Shown: positions 1,852 through 24,444 of the stretch, in pieces
Layout: every line of letters starts with the position of its first letter
Position numbering within the stretch: position 1 is the stretch's first letter
Source: Myxococcales bacterium
Lineage (GTDB): Bacteria; Myxococcota; Myxococcia; Myxococcales; Anaeromyxobacteraceae
Assembly: GCA_038320275.1 (NCBI GenBank)
Contig: JBBQEB010000042.1
Span: 1 to 25,840 of the forward strand
DNA length: 25,840 bases
Direction of reading: 5' to 3'
Made by a program: the position numbers and the translations under genes
The notes under the pieces: model-generated
Databases searched by the model: none
What the model was told of the DNA's origin: nothing
Seen by the model: only the letters and a program-made list of their open reading frames with translations

Positions 1852-3312
1852 ATGAGGATCCGGGCCCAGAGCTGGGTGCACCGGCTCTTGCTGCGCCTCG
1901 CCGAGCGGGCGCGCGCGGCCGACAAGGAGCGGCTGATCCTCGAGGAGGCGCTCAGCCACGCCTACGAGGGCATCATCATCGTCGACGCCCAGGGCTACAT
2001 CCTCAAGTCGAACCGCGCCTACGCGACCTTCCTCGGCTGGCGGCTCGAGGACATGATCGGCAAGCACTGCACCGAGGTGGTCGAGAACACCCGCATGCAC
2101 CTCGTGGCCAAGACCGGCGTTCCGGAGATCGCCCAGGTCCAGAAGATCCGCGGCCACGACATGATCTGCAGCCGCATCCCCATCTACGAGGGGGGCAAGG
2201 TGGTCGGGGTGGTGGGCAAGATCATGTTCCAGGACGTGGGCGACCTCTTCGCCATGACCGGCCGGTTCACTGCGATGAAGAAGGAGCTGGAGTTCTACCG
2301 GTCCGAGCTCTCCAAGCGGCTCGGCGCGCGCTACTCCTTCGAGAACATCGTCGGCACGAGCGAGGCGCTGGAGCGGGTGAAGGCGCTCGGCCGGCGCGTC
2401 GCCAAGACCGACACCACGGTCCTCCTGCAGGGCGAGAGCGGCACCGGCAAGGAGCTCTTCGCCCATTCGATCCACGTGGAGAGCGCGCGGGCGCTCGGGC
2501 CGTTCGTCAAGGTGAACTGCGCGGCCATCCCGGACACGCTCTTCGAGTCGGAGCTCTTCGGCTACAAGGCAGGGGCCTTCACCGGCGCCCAGAAGGGCGG
2601 GAAGAAGGGCAAGTTCGCGCTGGCCGAGCGGGGGACGATCTTCCTCGACGAGGTGAGCGAGCTCCCGCTGGGGATGCAGGTGAAGCTCCTGCGCGTGCTG
2701 CAGGAGAGGGAGATCGAGCCAGTGGGCGCGGTGGAGCCGGAGCGCATCGACGTCCGGATCGTCGCGGCCACCAACAAGGATCTGGAGGGGCTCGTCAAGG
2801 CGGGCCTCTTCCGCCAGGACCTCTACTACCGGCTCCACGTGGTGACGCTGGAGGTGCCGCCTCTGCGCAGCCGTCCCGAGGACATCGCGCCCATCGCCGA
2901 GCAGCTCCTGAAGGGGCTGGAAAAGGAGACCGGCATCCCGGTGGACGGGCTCGATCCGGCGGCCGAGGCTGCGCTGCGCGACCACCTCTGGCCGGGCAAC
3001 GTGCGGGAGCTGAAGAACGTCCTCGAGGGGGCGCTCTTCGTCAAATGCGGTCGCACCATCGAGCGGCACGATCTGCCACCGGCGCTGGCCGCGAGGCCTG
3101 CCGTCCCGGGGAGCGACCCGGTTCTCACCTTGCGCGACGTGCTGCGCAGGGCCGAGGAGGAGTGGCTGCGCAAGGCGCTGCTGGACGCCAAGGGCGACAA
3201 GCGGCTCGCCGCGTCGCGCCTCGGCATCAGCAAGAGCTCGATGTACGCGAAGATCGAGGAGTACCACATCGAAGCGGCGGGTCCTGCGGACAGGACCCGC
3301 CGCCTCTCCTGA
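1852..3312 (+). CDS. Sigma54-dependent transcriptional activator (PAS - AAA+ - Fis-type HTH), no receiver domain
   Basis: PAS ([14 protein letters not shown]); Walker [45 protein letters not shown]-terminal [18 protein letters not shown]. Confidence 0.95.
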
Positions 3313-5244: not shown

Positions 5245-6810
5245 ATGAGGAAGAGCAAGGTCGTGTCCGCCGAGGAGGCCATCGCGCTGGTGGGCGACGA
5301 CCAGGTGCTCGCGACCGACGGCTTCGTCGGGACCGGCTTCGCCGAGGAGCTGGCCCTGGCGCTGGAGAAGCGCTTCCTGGAAACGGGCGGGCCGAAGGGG
5401 CTCACCCTCATCTATTGCGCGGGGCAGGGGGACGGCAAGGAGCGCGGGCTCAACCACCTCGCCCACGCCGGCCTCGTCCGGCGGGTGGTGGGCGGCCACT
5501 GGGGTCTCGCTCCCAAGCTCCAGACCCTCGCCGTCGAGAACCGGATCGAGGCCTACAACCTCCCGCAGGGCGTCCTCGCGCACATGTTCCGCGACGCCGC
5601 CGCGGCCAAGCCCCGCACCGTCACGCGGGTCGGGCTGGGGACCTTCGTCGACCCGCGGCTCGGCGGCGGCAAGATCAACGCGCTCACCACCGAGGAGCTC
5701 GTCGAGCTCGTCCACTTCGACGGCCAGGAGTACCTCGCCTACCGCCCCATCGCTCCCGACGTCGCCTTCCTGCGCGGCACCACCGCCGACCCCGACGGCA
5801 ACGTCACCATGGAACGCGAGGCGCTGGTGCTGGAGGGGCTCGCCATCGCCCAGGCGACGAGGAACAAGGGCGGCAAGGTGATCGTGCAGGTGGAGCGCAT
5901 CGCCGAGCGCGGCTCGCTCCGCGCGCGCGAGGTGCGCCTCCCGGGCATGCTCGTCGACCGGGTGGTGGTGGCCCGGCCCGAGAACCACGGCCAGACCTTC
6001 GGGACCGCCTACGACCCCTCGTACTCGAGCGAGCTGCGCGTCCCCGTGAAGAGCCTGAAGCCCATGGTCATGGACGAGCGCAAGGTCATCGCGCGCCGCG
6101 CTGCCTTCGAGCTCACCCCGGGGAGCGTGGTGAACCTCGGCATCGGGATGCCGGAGGGGGTGGCGAGCGTCGCGAACGAGGAGGGCATCCTCGAGGACCT
6201 CAGCCTCACCACCGAGCCCGGCACCATCGGCGGCGTGCCCGCCGGAGGGCTCGACTTCGGCGCCGCCTCCAACATGGACGCCCTCGTGGATCAGCCAGCG
6301 CAGTTCGACTTCTACGATGGCGGCGGCGTCGACCAGGCGTTCCTCGGCCTCGCCCAGGCCGACCGCCATGGCAACCTCAACGTGAGCAAGTTCGGGCCGA
6401 AGCTCGCCGGGGCGGGGGGCTTCATCAACATCAGTCAGAACGCGAAGAAGGTGGTCTTCGTGGGCACCTTCACGGCGGGTGCGCTCCGGGTGGCGGTGGA
6501 GGATGGCCAGCTCCGCATCCTGCAGGAGGGCTCCATCGCGAAGTTCGTGGAGGCGGTGGAGCACGTCACCTTCAGCGCCCGCACCGCCATCGCGCAGAAG
6601 CAGCCCGTGCTGTACGTCACCGAGCGCTGCGTCTTCCGGCTGGTGCCGGACGGGCTCGAGCTCGTCGAGATCGCGCCCGGGGTGGACCTCGAGCGCGACA
6701 TCCTGGGCCGGATGAGCTTCCGGCCCGTCCTGCGCGCGCCTCCGAGGCTGATGGACGCGCGCATCTTCCGCGAGGCCCCCATGGGCCTCGGGGCCAGCGG
6801 TTCCTACTGA
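5245..6810 (+). CDS. Acyl-CoA:acetate/3-ketoacid CoA-transferase, fused family I (YdiF/Pct-like)
   Basis: [45 protein letters not shown], catalytic Glu in [30 protein letters not shown]. Confidence 0.95.
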
Positions 6811-7679: not shown

Positions 7680-8867
7680 ATGAATGCTTTGCGCGAGGTC
7701 GTCATCACCGGTGCGGCGCGGACGCCGATCGGATCGTTCCTGGGGGCGCTCTCGGCGCTCCCCGCGGCCAGGCTGGGCGCCATCGCCATCCGCGAGGCGG
7801 TGCTGCGCGCGGGCATCTCGCCCTCGTCGGTGGACGAGGTCGTGATGGGGAACGTGCTGCAGGCCGGGCAGGGACAGGCCCCCGCGCGCCAGGCGGCGCT
7901 CTATGCCGGGCTGCCGGACACCACCCCCTGCTGGACGCTCAACAAGATGTGCGGCTCGGGGCTGCAGGCGGTGATCGCGGCCGCTCGCGCCATCGCCATG
8001 GGAGACGCCGAGGTGGTGGTAGCGGGCGGCATGGAGTCGATGTCGAACGCGCCCTACCTGGCCACCACGATGCGCACCGGCAACCGCATGGGAAACGTGG
8101 CGCTGGTGGACGGCCTGCTCCACGACGGGCTCCTCGACGCCTACGAAGGCGTGCACATGGGCGTCTGCGCGGAGGAGACTGCCGCGCGCTTCGAGATCAC
8201 CCGGCAGGCGCAGGACGCCTACGCGCTCCTCTCCACCCAGCGCGCCGTCGATGCGCAGGCGAAGGGGCTCTTCAAGTCGGAGATCGTGCCGGTGGAGCTC
8301 GAGGGGAAGCGCGGCGAGCGCACCTCTGTCGCCGACGACGAAGGTCCCCGGCTCGCGCGGCCGGAGAAGATCCCGTCGCTGAAGCCGGTGTTCAAGAAGG
8401 ACGGCACCATCACCGCTGCGAACGCCTCCTCCATCAACGACGGTGCGGCGGCCCTCGTGCTCATGAGCGCGGCTCGCGCGGCGAAGGAGAACCGGTCGGT
8501 GCTTGCGCGCCTCACGGGCTGGGGCGCTGCGGCTCGGGCGCCGCGCGAGTTCACCATCGCGCCGGCCGATGCGGTGAAGCGCACGCTGGAGCGGTCCGGC
8601 CTGACCGTGGAAGACGTCGACCTGTGGGAGCTCAACGAGGCCTTCGCGGTGGTGGCCCTCGCCAACAACCGCCTCCTCGGCCTCGACCCGGCGAAGGTGA
8701 ACGTGCGCGGCGGCGCGGTGGTGCTGGGCCACCCCATCGGCGCAAGCGGAGCGCGGGTGCTCGTCACGCTGCTTCACGCCATGAAGGACCTGGGCAAGCG
8801 CCGGGGCGTCGCGAGCCTCTGCATCGGGGGCGGCGAGGCAGTGGCCGCCATCGTCGAGATGGGCTAG
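7680..8867 (+). CDS. atoB: Acetyl-CoA C-acetyltransferase (thiolase)
   Basis: RTPIG, GQAPARQA, NKMCGSG (catalytic Cys), GGMESMS, NEAF, GHPIGASG, LCIGGG; AGGAG RBS. Confidence 0.95.
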   Translation: MNALREVVITGAARTPIGSFLGALSALPAARLGAIAIREAVLRAGISPSSVDEVVMGNVLQAGQGQAPARQAALYAGLPDTTPCWTLNKMCGSGLQAVIAAARAIAMGDAEVVVAGGMESMSNAPYLATTMRTGNRMGNVALVDGLLHDGLLDAYEGVHMGVCAEETAARFEITRQAQDAYALLSTQRAVDAQAKGLFKSEIVPVELEGKRGERTSVADDEGPRLARPEKIPSLKPVFKKDGTITAANASSINDGAAALVLMSAARAAKENRSVLARLTGWGAAARAPREFTIAPADAVKRTLERSGLTVEDVDLWELNEAFAVVALANNRLLGLDPAKVNVRGGAVVLGHPIGASGARVLVTLLHAMKDLGKRRGVASLCIGGGEAVAAIVEMG

Positions 8868-8957: not shown

Positions 8958-9596
8958 TCAGAAGAAGTAGCGGAGGAACAGCACCGCGTTGGTCGAGAAC
9001 GAGGACAGGCCGCGGTTGGGCGCTGCGCTGCCCGCGGAGGTCTTCGTCGTCTGGTCTCCATAGGCGGTGATGGGGAGCTGGAGCTCGGCGCCCAGGGTGA
9101 AGCGCTGCGAGAAGGCGTGCTCTCCGCCCAGGACTGGCGCGAGGGTGAGGTCGTTCTCGGACAGCTCCGTGACCGACCCGGCGTCGCTCACGTCGGTTCG
9201 GCCACTGAACAGGAGCCCGAGGCGTCCACCCGCGTACAGCCCGGTGGGCGCGATGGGCCGGAAGAACCAGAGGGCTCCCACCCCCAGGCTCGTCGCCGAG
9301 GAGCTGGAGGTGGCGCCGTTCGACCGGGTCCGGGACGTGTGGAAGAGGCCCAGCGATGGCTCGATCCGCAGCGCCGGAAGCACCTGGAGCGGGAGGTACA
9401 GCGCCACCGGCGTGACCAGCGCGGCGTTCTGCAGCCCCAGGGTGACGTTTCCGAGCTGCAGCGGCTCGAGCCCCACCCCCACGCCGACGAGGGATGGAGA
9501 GGGTTCCGAGCTCGGGGTGGCCGTGGCAGCGCGGGCGGGCACGGCGGGCAGCAAGGAGAAGGCGAGAAGCAGGGCGAGACGTGGGATGGTGTTCAT
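8958..9596 (-). CDS. Outer-membrane beta-barrel protein (small, OmpA-transmembrane-like)
   Basis: Signal peptide MNTIPRLALLLAFSLLPAVPARA; alternating strands LRIEPSLGL, LGVGALWFF, LYAGGRLGL, FTLGAEL; C-terminal beta-signal-like LFLRYFF. Confidence 0.8.
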   Translation of the reverse strand: MNTIPRLALLLAFSLLPAVPARAATATPSSEPSPSLVGVGVGLEPLQLGNVTLGLQNAALVTPVALYLPLQVLPALRIEPSLGLFHTSRTRSNGATSSSSATSLGVGALWFFRPIAPTGLYAGGRLGLLFSGRTDVSDAGSVTELSENDLTLAPVLGGEHAFSQRFTLGAELQLPITAYGDQTTKTSAGSAAPNRGLSSFSTNAVLFLRYFF

Positions 9597-9753
9597 CGCG
9601 GGATGCTCGCGCGGGGCGTGGCAGCGCGGCAAGAATCGGAGCACCTTGCCTGAAACGCGGTCGAGTCAACGGGGTTCTCGAGACCCGTCACTCTGGGGTG
9701 TCCCGAGGTGCCAGAGCGCCGGACAACTCAACGGAACCGCGCCACCCAGCCCC

Positions 9754-20409: not shown

Positions 20410-20769
20410 TCATGCATCGGAGCGCGCCGCGCTCCGGGTCACCCATTCGATGATCGCCGTGCGCAGGGCCGCATGGAGGGGCAGGCCCTCTCGCTTCGCA
20501 GCTTCCTCGAGCCGCTCCCAGACCTCAGCCGGGAAGCGGACGGAGCGGGGAGTCGTCGGCCCCACCTCCTCGCCCTTCTTCGGGCGGCCGCGTCGGCTCG
20601 AGAGATGGACGCCGCCGGGGAGGGCGAGGCCCTCCTTGGCGATGCGCGCTGCGTAGGGGTTCGGCCGCCAGGTTCCGTCTTTGAGGCTCACCTCCGGCAT
20701 CTCGCGAAGTGAGGCGCGCGAGGGTGGCGCCTCGGTTCGCCGGCCCACCTGCTTACTTGCCTTCTTCAT
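20410..20769 (-). CDS. Putative antitoxin with C-terminal ribbon-helix-helix (BrnA/CopG-like)
   Basis: Overlaps the 3' end of brnT; GAGGAGG RBS; NPYA, RGRP, PRSVRFPAEVWERLEEAAKREG RHH-like pattern. Confidence 0.8.
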   Translation of the reverse strand: MKKASKQVGRRTEAPPSRASLREMPEVSLKDGTWRPNPYAARIAKEGLALPGGVHLSSRRGRPKKGEEVGPTTPRSVRFPAEVWERLEEAAKREGLPLHAALRTAIIEWVTRSAARSDA

Positions 20770-21022
20770 GGTCCCTCCTCTCGCGCTTGGTTGTCCGGCG
20801 AGCGCTGATGATACGGATTTCCTCTTCGGACTCGACGTGAACGCACACAAGCAGGCGTCCACCGCGCGACGTGCCGACGATGATGCTGCGCACTTCCGGG
20901 TGTTCGTCGTCCGGTTGCACCACCGCGAGCTCGTGGTCGAAGACGGTCGCGGCATCCTCGAACGAGACCCCGTGCTTGCGCACGCTCGATGCTGCCTTCC
21001 GAGGGTTCCAGGTGAAGCGCAA
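20753..21022 (-). CDS. brnT: BrnT-family toxin (RelE-like ribonuclease)
   Basis: M.FTW...K.....KHGVSFEDA..VF, E.R...VG, IRIISAR..T.RER. Confidence 0.92.
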   Translation of the reverse strand: MRFTWNPRKAASSVRKHGVSFEDAATVFDHELAVVQPDDEHPEVRSIIVGTSRGGRLLVCVHVESEEEIRIISARRTTKRERRDHEEGK

Positions 21023-21024
21023 GA

Positions 21025-21057
21025 TATAGTATTACTTTAGTCGGAAGCTCGCGGCAA
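21025..21057 (-). promoter_or_regulatory. TA promoter with overlapping palindromic operator
   Basis: Minus strand TTGCCG-17 nt-TAATAC-6 nt-TTG start; palindrome AGTA-T-TACT (21028-21036) in a conspicuous AT-rich patch. Confidence 0.55.
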
Positions 21058-21134
21058 CACGGGGTCGCCTTCGCGTAGCGTGCTGCGCAAGCCGAGCCAG
21101 GCGGGTAAGGGATCTTTCGACCCAAGGAGAAGCC

Positions 21135-21923
21135 ATGCCCCGTCAGGTGGAAGGCCGCGTCGCGTTCGTCACCGGTGCCGCCAGCGGCATCGGGCTCGCC
21201 ATCGCGCAGGCGCTGGCAGAGGAGGGTGCCAAGGTGGCGCTGTCGGACGTTCGCGAGGACGCGGTGCGCGAGGCGGCCCGGGAGGTCGCGAAGGCCAGCG
21301 GCGGGACGGCCATCGCGCTCGCCTGCGACGTGACGAAGGAGTCCGAGCTCACGGCTGCGCTCGATGCCTGTGCCCGAGAGCTCGGCCCGCTCGACATCCT
21401 CGTCAACAACGCTGGCCTGCAGTTCGTCTCGCCGCTGGAGTCGTTCCCCACCGAGAAGTTCGAGCTCTTGGTGAAGGTGATGCTGGTGGCGCCATTCATC
21501 GCCACGAAGCACGTCTTCGCTGGAATGAAGGAGCGCCGCTTCGGCCGGATCATCAACATGGCCTCGGTGAACGGCCTCGTCGGCTTCGCGGGGAAGGCCG
21601 CTTACAACAGCGCGAAGCACGGGCTCATCGGGCTCACCAAGGTGGCCGCTCTGGAGGGCGCCCAGGCCGGCGTGACCGTGAACGCGATCTGCCCCGGTTA
21701 CGTGGACACGCCCCTCGTCCGCAACCAGCTCGGCGACCTCGCCCGCACGCGCGGCGTCCCTCTGGACCGGGTCATGGACGAGGTCATCTTCCCCATGGTG
21801 CCCATGAAGAAGCTGCTCCAGACGAGGGACGTGGCGGACTACGCCCTCTTCCTCGCGAGTGACAAGGCGGGGTGCGTGACGGGACAGGCGGTGGTGGTGG
21901 ACGCCGGGTACACCGCGCAGTAG
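21135..21923 (+). CDS. bdhA: D-3-hydroxybutyrate dehydrogenase (SDR)
   Basis: TGAASGIG, NNAGLQFVSPLESFP.EKF, K.AYNSAKHG, ICPGYVDTPLV.NQ; AAGGAG RBS. Confidence 0.9.
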   Translation: MPRQVEGRVAFVTGAASGIGLAIAQALAEEGAKVALSDVREDAVREAAREVAKASGGTAIALACDVTKESELTAALDACARELGPLDILVNNAGLQFVSPLESFPTEKFELLVKVMLVAPFIATKHVFAGMKERRFGRIINMASVNGLVGFAGKAAYNSAKHGLIGLTKVAALEGAQAGVTVNAICPGYVDTPLVRNQLGDLARTRGVPLDRVMDEVIFPMVPMKKLLQTRDVADYALFLASDKAGCVTGQAVVVDAGYTAQ

Positions 21924-21934
21924 CTCTTCGGCGC

Positions 21935-21948
21935 TTGGCCTAGGTCAA
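21935..21948. promoter_or_regulatory. FNR/CRP-family-like box upstream of the c7-barrel gene
   Basis: TTGGC-CTAG-GTCAA, 9/10 to TTGAC-N4-GTCAA; TAGGGT -10-like hexamer at 21970-21975. Confidence 0.6.
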
Positions 21949-21980
21949 GGCGCACCTCCAGGCGCCATGTAGGGTGAGCC

Positions 21981-23048
21981 ATGCTCCCCGTCGTGCGCCG
22001 CGCCAGTCTCGCACGAGCGCTCGCCGCCCTCCTGGCAGGCACCGCTTCCGCAGGGGAGCCCGCCCCGCTCTACGCAAGCCTCGCCCCTGCTCCGGCCGCG
22101 GCCGCGCGGCTGAGCACCGGAGGGCTGCCGGACGCGGAGTCGCTGGTGGAAGGCGCCCTGCCGCCCCCGCCCGAGAGGGTGGTGCTGGTCACCAAGGGCT
22201 TCGGGACGGTGACGGTGAACCACAAGGCGCACCTCGCGCTGCGCGTGCATTGCGCCGCCTGCCACGGGCCTGGTCCCGTGACGAAGCTGCATCCGATGCA
22301 GGTGCGCGTCGCCCACGAGCGGTGCATCGGCTGCCACCGGGAGACCGAGAAGGCGCCGCAGGGCTGCCGCGGGTGTCACGTGGTCGCGCCTCCAGCGCCG
22401 GCGCCCAGCAAGGTCGCCGCAGCCTCGACGGGCGCCGCGGCAGCGGTGACCCTCGCGGCGGCGTCGCCCGCAGCAGCTGCCGCGAACCCTGCCCGGGCGG
22501 CCTCGAGCAGCGCAGCCGGGCCGGCCGGCGGCGCCCCCGTCGCGCTCGCCGCCCCCGGACTCCTTCTGACGGCGCAGCGGGAGCGGACGGGCACGCGCCG
22601 GGTGGCCGAGCTCGGGTCGGCTGTCCTGATCCCGCGCGGCCGTGGCGGAAGCGCCGGCCCCGCGCTGCGGGTCGCCCTCGAGGACGATGGCTCCTTGTTC
22701 ACGCAGAGCCTCGAGTCCACGCTCTCGCGCGATGGCGCCGCCGGAAGGACGGTCGGGCTCCTCGGCTTCGGAAAGTCGATCCCCCTCGGCTCGCGCGCAA
22801 GCTTGAGCGCGCTCCTCGTGGGCGGCTTCGACGCGGTGGGCGTGCCCAGCCTCACGGTGATGCCCGCGGCGGGGGTGCGGCTCGGGGCGCGGCTCCGCAA
22901 CGGGTGGCCCTTCGCGCACGTCATCTCCCTCGAGGTCACCGGTCTCGCCGACCTCACCCGGCCCCGCGCCGCGGGGGGCGACTCGGCCGGCCGGGAGCTG
23001 CTCGGGTTGGGCGCGAGCGTGGGTGTCCCCCTCGGTGACACGCGCTGA
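21981..23048 (+). CDS. Triheme cytochrome c7 (PpcA-like) domain fused via Ala/Pro linker to a predicted outer-membrane beta-barrel
   Basis: Signal peptide; GTVTVNHKAH, CAACH, AHERCIGCH, P..CRGCH (c7 spacing); about 70-aa Ala/Pro linker; C-terminal region of about 8 amphipathic strand-like segments. Confidence 0.8.
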   Translation: MLPVVRRASLARALAALLAGTASAGEPAPLYASLAPAPAAAARLSTGGLPDAESLVEGALPPPPERVVLVTKGFGTVTVNHKAHLALRVHCAACHGPGPVTKLHPMQVRVAHERCIGCHRETEKAPQGCRGCHVVAPPAPAPSKVAAASTGAAAAVTLAAASPAAAAANPARAASSSAAGPAGGAPVALAAPGLLLTAQRERTGTRRVAELGSAVLIPRGRGGSAGPALRVALEDDGSLFTQSLESTLSRDGAAGRTVGLLGFGKSIPLGSRASLSALLVGGFDAVGVPSLTVMPAAGVRLGARLRNGWPFAHVISLEVTGLADLTRPRAAGGDSAGRELLGLGASVGVPLGDTR

Positions 23049-23059
23049 AGCGGCTCGCG

Positions 23060-23073
23060 TTGTCGCGGGTCAA
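23060..23073. promoter_or_regulatory. FNR/CRP-family-like box upstream of the tetraheme cytochrome gene
   Basis: TTGTC-GCGG-GTCAA, 9/10 to TTGAC-N4-GTCAA; followed by GG as in the first box; TG-n-GAGGGT at 23093-23101. Confidence 0.6.
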
Positions 23074-23135
23074 GGACCGGGGTCGGGGCGTGTGCGAGGG
23101 TCCCGCGTCCCGTTCAGCTCTCCCCAGGAGGAGAC

Positions 23136-23681
23136 ATGAGGCTTCTCGCCCCGATCGTCGCCGTCGCGCTCGCAGCCGTGCTCGTTCCGTTCACCGCCCT
23201 CGCCGCGGGCGGGCACGATTCCATCGGCTGCTCCGGCTGCCATTCCCTGCACGCCGCCAAGGGTGCTGCCTCGTTCGCGGTGGCGCCCAACACCAAGTAC
23301 CTGAATCCCAAGACCAACAAGCCGTACCAGGGCATCACCGCGCTCTGCCTCGCTTGCCACCAGGACTCCGACAAGGGAGGCCAGGGCTACGCGCCCATCT
23401 CCCAGCACGTCAGCCACCCCTTCGACCTCGATCAGGTGAACCCCAAGGTGGCGCGGGTGCCGGCCGAGATGCTCCACAACGGCCGCTTCGAGTGCATGGG
23501 CTGCCACGACCCGCACCCGGCCAACGCCAACTACAAATACCTTCGCGTCGACACCTCGGGGGGAAAGAACATCGACCGCTTCTGCGGCACGTGCCACGCC
23601 TCCAAGGCCGACGCAGGGGCGCTGACCGAGAAGGCCGTGCAGACGGTTCCCGCCGCCAAGGCCCCCGCCAAGAAGAAGTGA
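23136..23681 (+). CDS. Secreted tetraheme c-type cytochrome (paired CxxCH family, OmcE-like motif order)
   Basis: AGGAGG RBS; signal peptide; CSGCHSLH, LCLACH, SHP, ECMGCHDPH, YLR, FCGTCH. Confidence 0.92.
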   Translation: MRLLAPIVAVALAAVLVPFTALAAGGHDSIGCSGCHSLHAAKGAASFAVAPNTKYLNPKTNKPYQGITALCLACHQDSDKGGQGYAPISQHVSHPFDLDQVNPKVARVPAEMLHNGRFECMGCHDPHPANANYKYLRVDTSGGKNIDRFCGTCHASKADAGALTEKAVQTVPAAKAPAKKK

Positions 23682-23689
23682 CGAAGGGA

Positions 23690-23989
23690 CTAGAAGCGGC
23701 TCGGGTCCTTCAGGACCGCGCACACCTGCAGGGCCCGCAGGCCGTTCGGCTTGCACTCCGGAACGGTGCGGCAGACGGCCTGGCAGTCGAAGCCGTTCTT
23801 CACGCGGCAGACGCGCCGGGTGCCGAGGTTCTGGCACTCGGCGTGACAGCCCTGGGCCTCGACGATGATCTGGTCGCCCTGCTCCAGGATAAAGCTGTCG
23901 TCGCCCGGCCCCCGGGCCGCGGCGGTGCCGGCGATGGCGATGGCGGCGACCGCCGCGACCGTGATGAGGTGAACCGCATAGGCGCGCAT
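23690..23989 (-). CDS. Small secreted cysteine-rich hypothetical protein (99 aa)
   Basis: AGGAG RBS; signal peptide ending TAAA; 7 Cys, no CxxCH. Confidence 0.75.
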   Translation of the reverse strand: MRAYAVHLITVAAVAAIAIAGTAAARGPGDDSFILEQGDQIIVEAQGCHAECQNLGTRRVCRVKNGFDCQAVCRTVPECKPNGLRALQVCAVLKDPSRF

Positions 23990-24084
23990 CGAGGCTCCTG
24001 TGGCGTGAAGACGGGTCGCCAGGCCAGATCATTCAGCATGGCGGTGCCGCGCGCGAGCGGAAACTGCCCAGCCAGACCTCATCG

Positions 24085-24444
24085 TCACGCGGGCGGCGTC
24101 GCGGTCCGGCTACCGCCGTCGATTCCCTCGCCCGGGGAAGGCGCGGAGCGCTCGCTCGCCATCGTCACCGCGACCTTCGCAGCCGCCTTGGCGAGCCGGT
24201 AGGCGGCGCGATCCACAACCTCGTGCGCCTCGTCCCGCAACTTCGCCAGCACGTAGCCCGATAGTGACATCTCCACGGGCGGCGGCCGGGGCCGTCTGGA
24301 CTTCGCCACCGCCCGATCCTCGGGGCTGCTCCCCCCCTGCTGCGGGGACTCGTCGTCGCAGAAGCGTCCGCAGGCGGCCTGGGCCGGGAGGGCGGCGCAG
24401 GCGAGCAGGGCGGTGAGCGCGAGGGAGGAGAGGCGGGAGGTCAT
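24085..24444 (-). CDS. Hypothetical secreted protein (119 aa)
   Basis: MTSRLSSLALTALLACAALPAQA signal peptide; start moved from 24789 to ATG 24444 to avoid overlap with pntA. Confidence 0.55.
   Translation of the reverse strand: MTSRLSSLALTALLACAALPAQAACGRFCDDESPQQGGSSPEDRAVAKSRRPRPPPVEMSLSGYVLAKLRDEAHEVVDRAAYRLAKAAAKVAVTMASERSAPSPGEGIDGGSRTATPPA

Follow-up and report, generated by a model that had tools for sequence, protein, structure and literature searches.

The window analysed here is the whole stretch of 25,840 nucleotides of a Myxococcales bacterium of the family Anaeromyxobacteraceae (assembly GCA_038320275.1, contig JBBQEB010000042.1). It carries a gene for a 355-residue protein, presumably secreted, in which a triheme cytochrome domain of the c7 type is joined by a long flexible linker to a predicted eight-stranded β-barrel of the outer-membrane type. 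We consider it fairly probable that this c7-linker-barrel protein is a periplasmic electron carrier tethered to the outer membrane, where it would serve multiheme cytochromes located at or near that membrane; the barrel fold is predicted, and the carrier role is inferred. The gene and its parts, with residues numbered along the protein, are as follows.

21981..23048, plus strand: whole c7-linker-barrel gene, 355 amino acids, ATG start, stop codon included (list of open reading frames).
21981..22052, plus strand: signal-peptide-like N-terminus, residues 1–24, recognised by eye in the translation from RR, a hydrophobic stretch and ASA before G25.
22053..22172, plus strand: N-terminal extension rich in Ala and Pro, with the conserved ALPPPP motif (residues 59–64) at its end (alignment and AlphaFold2 model).
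22173..22382, plus strand: triheme c7-type cytochrome domain, residues 65–134 (motifs, phmmer, Pfam and NCBIfam).
22251-22265, 22323-22337 and 22365-22379, plus strand: the CxxCH motifs of the c7 domain (translation).
22383..22595, plus strand: flexible Ala/Pro-rich linker, residues 135–205 (composition, and predicted local distance difference test scores, pLDDT, of 32–40).
22596..23033, plus strand: predicted eight-stranded outer-membrane-type β-barrel, residues 206–351 (AlphaFold2, Foldseek and VIA-align).
23034..23048, plus strand: short polar tail GDTR and stop codon, with no terminal aromatic residue (translation).

The open reading frame is a single continuous gene with no frameshift, because its G+C content at third codon positions (GC3) is uniformly of the coding type in one frame: 0.93 for the c7 and C-terminal parts alike, 0.85 for the linker and 0.89 overall. 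The other frames across the region of the gene have GC3 values of 0.64–0.78. The codon-position test was chosen since long spurious frames are common in the DNA of the window, which has a G+C content of 68–77%. The ALPPPP motif at the end of the N-terminal extension is conserved, with P64 invariant and A59 and L60 at least 90% conserved in 39 aligned sequences, and the extension itself is modelled with pLDDT <50. Anchoring of the 355-residue protein as a lipoprotein is ruled out, as there is no Cys before residue 91 and hence no lipobox. In a scan of positions 20900-24200, no sequence resembling a promoter was found, and none resembling a terminator on the plus strand. No RNA sequencing run containing the stretch was found, and the one run that contains it is of DNA and may be that from which the window came.

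Relatives of the whole protein were found by several routes. A word-indexed search of 5.8 billion proteins returned six relatives of 319–391 residues, one of which is named “cytochrome c3 family protein [Anaeromyxobacter sp.]”. A phmmer search with the barrel alone (residues 200–355) against 1.84 billion cluster representatives gave 58 matches at E ≤0.001, of which 35 are proteins of 290–393 residues with the barrel at the C-terminus. Another 22, of 105–226 residues, start within the linker, the barrel or the c7 domain, and by eye they look like N-terminally truncated gene calls. The match P0061 (5697 residues, E 6.8e-4, seven short stretches) was excluded from the barrel family as a likely low-complexity match. 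The 35 long matches and four further word-indexed relatives make up the 39-sequence family alignment, in which every full-length relative (39/39) keeps all heme ligands, a linker of at least 50 residues and the barrel, the last with a length of 134–155 residues. No split form, with the c7 domain and the barrel as separate genes, turned up among the barrel matches. An artefact or a frameshift as the origin of the fusion, the danger that the sequence-only reading of this DNA had seen in its own proposal, is ruled out by the uniform GC3 and the conservation in relatives. Judged from these sequences, the fusion is a conserved arrangement and not an assembly error.

The family is concentrated close to the source organism. 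A six-frame search of 92 genomes of the family of the window identified 16 full-length places covered by a single alignment in 14 genomes (14 of the 91 relatives). Four more genomes of the family have c7 and barrel pieces inside one open frame, and many other matches cover the c7 part only. The genome of the window returned its own gene at 100%, the sole copy found there. In a 301-genome sample of the phylum, the barrel query matched 12 of 39 genomes in the same family and, with this query, none of 261 elsewhere. Database names of the relatives, which include entries under the names of cultured Anaeromyxobacter species, are only “cytochrome c3 family protein” (Anaeromyxobacter) or “hypothetical protein”. 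A profile search adds only names such as “Cytochrome c7-like domain-containing protein”, and none of the matches has a precomputed Pfam domain.

The c7 domain contains three CxxCH motifs, CAACH (residues 91–95), CIGCH (115–119) and CRGCH (129–133), and the further histidines H81, H84 and H112. All six cysteines and six histidines are invariant in 39/39 aligned full-length relatives. In a phmmer search against the sequences of the Protein Data Bank (PDB), the best match is the cytochrome c7 of entry 3h4n (E 5.7e-10), which aligns without gaps over 68 residues (query positions 9–76 onto chain positions 3–70), all six Cys and six His included. It is followed by 3bxu (5.2e-9), PpcA 1os6 (6.9e-7) and the Desulfuromonas c7 1ehj (5.3e-6), so that the top sequence matches are all c7 proteins. 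H81, H84 and H112 align to histidines of 3h4n, 3bxu and the PpcA variant 3sj0, and we infer that they are the distal ligands of hemes with bis-histidine ligation. On these alignments, residues 65–134 are a c7-type triheme domain, not an equivalog of the Geobacter c7 proteins.

The linker between the two domains, counted over the stretch 134–205, has 72 residues, 29 of them Ala and 9 Pro. The linkers of the 39 family members are 50–142 residues long, with a median of 71 and a composition of 27% Ala, 19% Pro and 10% Gly; none is shorter than 50 residues. Such lengths fit a requirement for reach. The heme-binding motifs and additional histidines, their c7-type spacing and an Ala/Pro linker of about 70 residues had all been named in the sequence-only reading, and they are borne out by the invariance of the ligands, the end-to-end alignment to a solved c7 structure and the residue count.

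The structure of the complete 355-residue protein was predicted using AlphaFold2 from a 7-sequence alignment. Values of pLDDT are low, 32–58, in the signal peptide, in the linker and in the c7 domain, for which no hemes were modelled. The C-terminal domain is modelled as a barrel of eight strands, assigned by DSSP to residues 206-218, 224-235, 238-247, 256-268, 273-286, 292-306, 314-324 and 339-351. The barrel strands are 10–15 residues long and are joined by short turns. The putative periplasmic turns have 2, 4 and 7 residues, and the putative outer loops 5, 8, 5 and 14. Mean pLDDT in 10-residue blocks over residues 201–355 is 75, 89, 89, 93, 89, 81, 95, 95, 83, 91, 87, 90, 71, 54, 93 and 64, with the lower values at the start of the barrel (75), around the loop 329–336 (54) and in the tail (64).

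Comparison of the modelled barrel with the PDB using Foldseek gave 11 matches at E ≤0.001, all to barrels of the OmpA, Ail, OmpX or OprF type, with template modelling (TM) scores of at most 0.64 on the target. The best matches are OmpA, Ail, OmpX, the N-terminal domain of OprF, and NspA. VIA-align, a fold search independent of Foldseek, was run over 48,161 chains. Its ten best rows, listed below with Z score, root-mean-square deviation (rmsd) and number of aligned residues, are all natural outer-membrane barrels with the exception of one designed transmembrane barrel; they span Z scores of 13.3–17.9, with 116–145 residues aligned.

9nh2_A, Legionella outer-membrane porin: Z 17.9, rmsd 2.6 Å, 145 aligned.
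2f1t_A, OmpW: Z 17.5, rmsd 3.5 Å, 145 aligned.
1p4t_A, NspA: Z 17.0, rmsd 3.0 Å, 143 aligned.
3nb3_A, OmpA: Z 16.8, rmsd 2.0 Å, 128 aligned.
3dzm_A, Thermus outer-membrane protein: Z 16.6, rmsd 3.4 Å, 141 aligned.
4rlc_A, OprF N-domain: Z 15.9, rmsd 2.1 Å, 127 aligned.
6x9z_A, designed transmembrane barrel: Z 15.3, rmsd 1.8 Å, 116 aligned.
2erv_B, PagL: Z 14.7, rmsd 2.4 Å, 125 aligned.
4fuv_A, CarO: Z 13.8, rmsd 3.3 Å, 132 aligned.
2lhf, OprH: Z 13.3, rmsd 2.7 Å, 136 aligned.

Soluble eight-stranded barrels score lower in the same search: designed ones reach Z ≤11.6, the YceI-like 1wub 10.2 and avidins 9–9.8. About 100–110 residues are aligned in the soluble barrels other than 1wub, and 139 in 1wub. 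The eight segments that had been picked out by eye as strand-like coincide with the DSSP strands of the model, and the outer-membrane fold proposed for them agrees, at the level of prediction, with this separation between outer-membrane barrels (Z 13–18) and soluble ones (Z ≤11.6). As a lead only, the nearest neighbours of residues 200–355 in the ESM Atlas are unnamed Acidobacteriota proteins of about 140 residues at 0.95–0.96, and one PagL cluster is found at 0.94 with 120 shared features.

The strands of the 39 relatives follow a strict two-residue periodicity. The mean Kyte-Doolittle hydropathy is 1.78 on one face and -0.18 on the other. The invariant or near-invariant residues G212, R256, G262, G264, G282, D284, G298, R300, G302 and D324 lie on the polar or small face. 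The pattern suggests a conserved polar interior and a variable, hydrophobic, lipid-facing exterior, as in a small membrane barrel. In soluble barrels the arrangement is the opposite. The C-terminal domain is thus predicted, from the model, to be an eight-stranded barrel of the outer-membrane type.

The barrel also occurs in two variant proteins. A 534-residue frame in genome G071 (L015:1474-3075, minus strand) has two tandem c7 domains with six CxxCH motifs ahead of the linker and the barrel. The 460-residue protein P0063 of genome G048 (L034:8730-10112, minus strand) is heme-free and ends in GLAF. A hydrophobic helix at its N-terminus leads into a stretch of about 300 residues, rich in Ala, Pro and Lys, and then into the same barrel at the C-terminus. 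Its gene is surrounded by genes of 7-, 10- and 12-heme cytochromes. P0063 could be a tether spanning both membranes. Because the barrel is found both with two c7 domains and with a heme-free arm, it appears to be modular.

We hypothesize an insertion of the barrel into the outer membrane such that both of its ends face the periplasm. Eight-stranded barrels such as OmpA and OmpX lack a pore through which a protein could fit, and c-type hemes are attached in the periplasm. Outer-membrane barrels with an even number of strands have both termini in the periplasm, according to the available part of Keffer et al. 2021 (PMC8406198). The c7 domain would stay in the periplasm for these three reasons taken together, as an eight-stranded barrel would be too narrow to pass or to house a folded holo-cytochrome. 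Held on its leash, the c7 domain could swing from periplasmic or inner-membrane donors to multiheme cytochromes at the outer membrane. One candidate redox partner is encoded by the neighbouring gene:

23136..23681, plus strand: secreted tetraheme cytochrome, 181 amino acids, doubled CxxCH (four motifs), Pfam Paired_CXXCH_1 at E 4.9e-8.

The tetraheme gene is co-directional with the c7-barrel gene and begins 88 bases downstream of it, behind an AGGAGG ribosome-binding site. The tetraheme protein carries nine invariant histidines, one above the need of four bis-histidine hemes, and a Lys-rich Ala/Pro tail. Comparison of the protein with PDB sequences gave no significant match (best E 0.066), and its AlphaFold2 model, built from a 32-sequence alignment, is poor (mean pLDDT 57, predicted TM score 0.35). 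Where orthologues adjoin the c7-barrel gene of relatives, they are located downstream in loci L004 and L007 and upstream in L005, and on the family tree the loci with this adjacency belong to two distinct clades. The tetraheme family, with 475 matches at E ≤1e-5, is much larger than the fusion family, and therefore the pairing is facultative. Of 19 relatives’ loci, 7 have a gene with at least four CxxCH motifs inside the flanks of about 1.5 kb. By comparison, 2.2% of the genome of the window is that near to such a gene, a baseline from one genome set against relatives that are not independent of each other. In genome G003, the second of two c7-barrel copies follows genes for 26-heme and 16-heme cytochromes on the same strand. 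The enrichment of multiheme neighbours in the relatives’ loci points to electron transfer chains.

Several observations weigh against a tethered carrier in the outer membrane. The c7 domain scores below curated cut-offs, with 21.2 bits for Pfam Cytochrome_C7 (PF14522, residues 77–133, cut-off 24.8) and 49.4 bits for NCBIfam CytC7_Geobact (NF043011, residues 67–133, E 4.7e-13, equivalog cut-off 120). The insertion signal of outer-membrane barrels is C-terminal and ends in an aromatic residue. The protein studied here ends in GVPLGDTR, with no terminal aromatic, and most relatives have a noncanonical C-terminus of G-[FLV]-x-[LVF] followed by 2–6 residues that form a short basic tail. The barrel has few aromatic residues, with a median of 6.5%, which makes for a weak aromatic girdle. 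Pfam and NCBIfam scans placed no model over residues 200–355, and a Pfam scan of the 39 family members found no outer-membrane family at E ≤1 except for one DUF3575 match at E 0.16. The outward or inward direction of the strand faces was deduced from the sequence, not from the coordinates of the model. Membrane insertion is a prediction from the modelled fold of a domain that has neither the canonical aromatic end nor a curated family. Orthologues of the tetraheme protein (52–71% identity) adjoin the c7-barrel gene in only 3 of 19 relatives’ loci, and in the close relatives G001, G002 and G007 the gene lies amid unrelated genes. The genome of the window encodes 22 open frames with at least four CxxCH motifs and has 30 c7-like domain matches. 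Among its cytochromes is a small, free triheme c7 that resembles PpcA and carries a signal peptide of its own (G000:C104:8364-8744, minus strand), and because the two coexist, the need for a tethered c7 is not obvious.

The barrel might instead be a subunit that serves docking or assembly in a larger cytochrome complex of the outer membrane. In that complex the c7 domain would be a fixed entry heme group and the linker a spacer through the peptidoglycan. This is the kind of arrangement that the multiheme genes in 7 of 19 loci, the second G003 copy and the recurrence of tetraheme adjacency in two clades would fit. However, the neighbour changes from locus to locus, with 4, 7, 8 or 10 hemes or none, the three close relatives stand alone, and a fixed subunit is unlikely to tolerate linkers of 50–142 residues. 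No large porin gene adjoins the c7-barrel gene, and none was found near it in the window. We regard a fixed subunit as unlikely.

A role of the c7 domain as a redox sensor or local protectant, and not as a respiratory carrier, would suit the neighbourhood of the gene, which is not respiratory (3-hydroxybutyrate dehydrogenase, BrnT/BrnA and an amino-acid ABC transporter). The domain could pass electrons to a peroxidase, for example, or report the redox state of the periplasm to the outer membrane, and a redox complex of PpcA with the peroxidase MacA in Geobacter is described in the available part of PMC10582990. On the other hand, Pfam and NCBIfam scans found no sensor output domain in the protein, and the multiheme genes beside its relatives favour electron transfer chains. 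A sensor or protectant therefore seems to us quite improbable.

We also weighed a soluble periplasmic barrel of the YceI, lipocalin or avidin kind, which would bind a hydrophobic ligand such as an isoprenoid or a quinone and couple ligand binding to the c7 domain. The model does match 1wub and the avidins at the Z scores given above, the hydrophobic alternation alone is compatible with either orientation of the faces, and the canonical C-terminal aromatic and an outer-membrane family match are both missing. Yet outer-membrane barrels score 3–7 Z units higher, with 143–145 residues aligned as against 101–111 for avidin-like and designed soluble barrels. The strands of 10–15 residues with minimal turns and the conservation of Gly and charged residues, not of a hydrophobic core, also speak for a membrane barrel, and Pfam scans of the protein and the 39 family members gave no YceI or lipocalin match. 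We give a soluble barrel very little credence. Export of the cytochrome by the C-terminal barrel, which would yield an outer-surface reductase in an organism rich in multiheme cytochromes and would agree with the order of signal peptide, passenger, linker and C-terminal barrel in classical autotransporters, is hardly credible, because the model has 8 strands and not the 12 of autotransporter barrels, its matches OmpX, OmpA and NspA have no open pore, and a holo-domain folded after heme attachment in the periplasm could probably not pass the barrel.

The tethered carrier has counterparts for each of its parts among known systems. PpcA-E and cytochrome c7 of Geobacter and Desulfuromonas (3h4n, 3bxu, 1os6 and 1hh5) share this domain with the protein: its length of about 70 residues, its three CxxCH motifs and the positions of its three additional histidines. 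They are free periplasmic proteins of 68–75 residues, whereas the domain described here is the head of a 355-residue protein with a linker and a barrel and falls below the curated cut-offs. The barrel has the same predicted fold as the class of OmpA, OmpX, OmpW, NspA and PagL (Z 14.7–17.5, rmsd 2.0–3.5 Å over 125–145 residues), but it shares no sequence-family membership with them and does not end in an aromatic residue. OmpA likewise combines a barrel with a periplasmic domain; in the c7-barrel protein the order is reversed, with the barrel last, and the periplasmic domain would be a cytochrome.

Cytochrome cy of Rhodobacter capsulatus is the nearest working analogue. According to the available part of PMC7876108, an anchor helix of 30 residues is followed in this protein by a linker of 69 and a cytochrome domain of 100 residues; rapid transfer to the reaction centre requires the entire linker, and about 45 residues are enough for the oxidase. 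The shared plan is an anchor, a linker of about 70 residues and a tethered cytochrome, the linker being 69 residues in cytochrome cy, 72 here and 71 in the family median. Cytochrome cy, however, is anchored in the inner membrane by a helix at its N-terminus, and its head is a class I cytochrome with a single heme, while here the anchor would be a C-terminal outer-membrane barrel and the head is a triheme c7. The resemblance is one of analogy, not of homology.

In Cyc2 of iron oxidisers, a cytochrome with one heme is fused to a porin of 16 strands and is predicted to plug the mouth of the pore (available part of Keffer et al. 2021, PMC8406198). As described there, Cyc2 resembles the c7-barrel protein in having a signal peptide, an N-terminal c-type cytochrome predicted to be periplasmic and a C-terminal outer-membrane barrel in one chain. 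It differs, in the same description, in having one heme, 16 strands and no leash, compared with three hemes, 8 strands with no room for a pore and a 72-residue linker here. No sequence similarity was detected between Cyc2 and the c7-barrel protein. The Pcc and MtrAB conduits also bring together a cytochrome and an outer-membrane barrel in metal-respiring bacteria, including Anaeromyxobacter, but according to the available portions of Shi et al. 2014 (PMC4245776) they are encoded by separate genes and consist of large porins with 8–14-heme cytochromes inserted in the pore. The c7-barrel protein, by contrast, is one polypeptide with 3 hemes and an 8-strand barrel, and there is no large porin gene near it in the window.

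That the MtrAB and Pcc systems use separate polypeptides and larger barrels had been put forward in the sequence-only reading, and the available portions of PMC4245776 agree. Its further claim, that the architecture has no characterised example, stands in one part, as no fusion of a c7 with a small barrel was found in the literature searched, and needs qualifying in another, as Cyc2 is already known as a fused cytochrome and barrel. A literature search, with most subscription journals outside it, found no paper that describes a c7 or multiheme domain fused to a small barrel. The available portions of PMC4245776 and PMC10954620 make no mention of a fusion of the c7-barrel type, and the words “fusion” and “fused” are absent from PMC4245776. 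The parts of the protein are thus familiar, their combination is unreported in this search, and the barrel has been missed by annotation.

The window is not a respiratory island. Upstream are genes for 3-hydroxybutyrate dehydrogenase, BrnT/BrnA, a branched-chain amino-acid ABC transporter, FdhE, a thiolase and a CoA transferase, and downstream is a gene for a transhydrogenase alpha subunit. The following features were placed by coordinates.

84-1925: LytS-type histidine kinase.
1852-3312: sigma-54 activator.
5245-6810: CoA transferase, ketone-body/polyhydroxybutyrate-type.
7680-8867: thiolase, ketone-body/polyhydroxybutyrate-type.
8958-9644, minus strand: unrelated 228-residue frame that matches the outer-membrane barrel family PF13505 below threshold (26.0 bits, cut-off 28.7).
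20410-21022, minus strand: type II toxin-antitoxin pair just upstream of the 3-hydroxybutyrate dehydrogenase gene, BrnT (PF04365, E 1e-25) and then a ribbon-helix-helix antitoxin-like frame.
21135-21923: 3-hydroxybutyrate dehydrogenase, ketone-body/polyhydroxybutyrate-type.
23690-23989, minus strand: 99-residue frame with a GC3 of 0.91 and a Cys-rich C-terminal half, convergent with the tetraheme gene, with no match in Pfam or NCBIfam.

A protein with three CxxCH motifs that ends in ...PLC[LM]ACHA[FM]D recurs in the genomes compared (L030:7024-7623, plus strand; L031:10273-11358, plus strand; G000:C24:21115-22188, minus strand). Its gene is located near both c7-barrel copies of G003 and on a separate contig in the genome of the window.

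How electrons cross the periplasm of about 20 nm in metal-respiring bacteria is debated between small diffusing cytochromes, such as PpcA, and fixed protein wires. If the proposal is true, tethering of a c7 to the outer membrane would add a third solution, and the c7-barrel protein would be the first known case of an electron carrier anchored in the outer membrane by a self-contained barrel. We speculate further, with slightly more doubt than belief, that the periplasm of the Anaeromyxobacter type is partly wired by leashed carriers, in which a PpcA-like c7 on a miniature barrel and an Ala/Pro arm of at least 50 residues would feed outer-membrane multiheme cytochromes, and the barrel would be part of a reusable barrel-and-leash module. 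The barrel family defined here is unseen by current annotation. The occurrence of orthologues under the names of cultured Anaeromyxobacter species makes experiments feasible, and a tethered c7 would make the question of periplasm crossing testable by one variable, the length of the leash, as for cytochrome cy.

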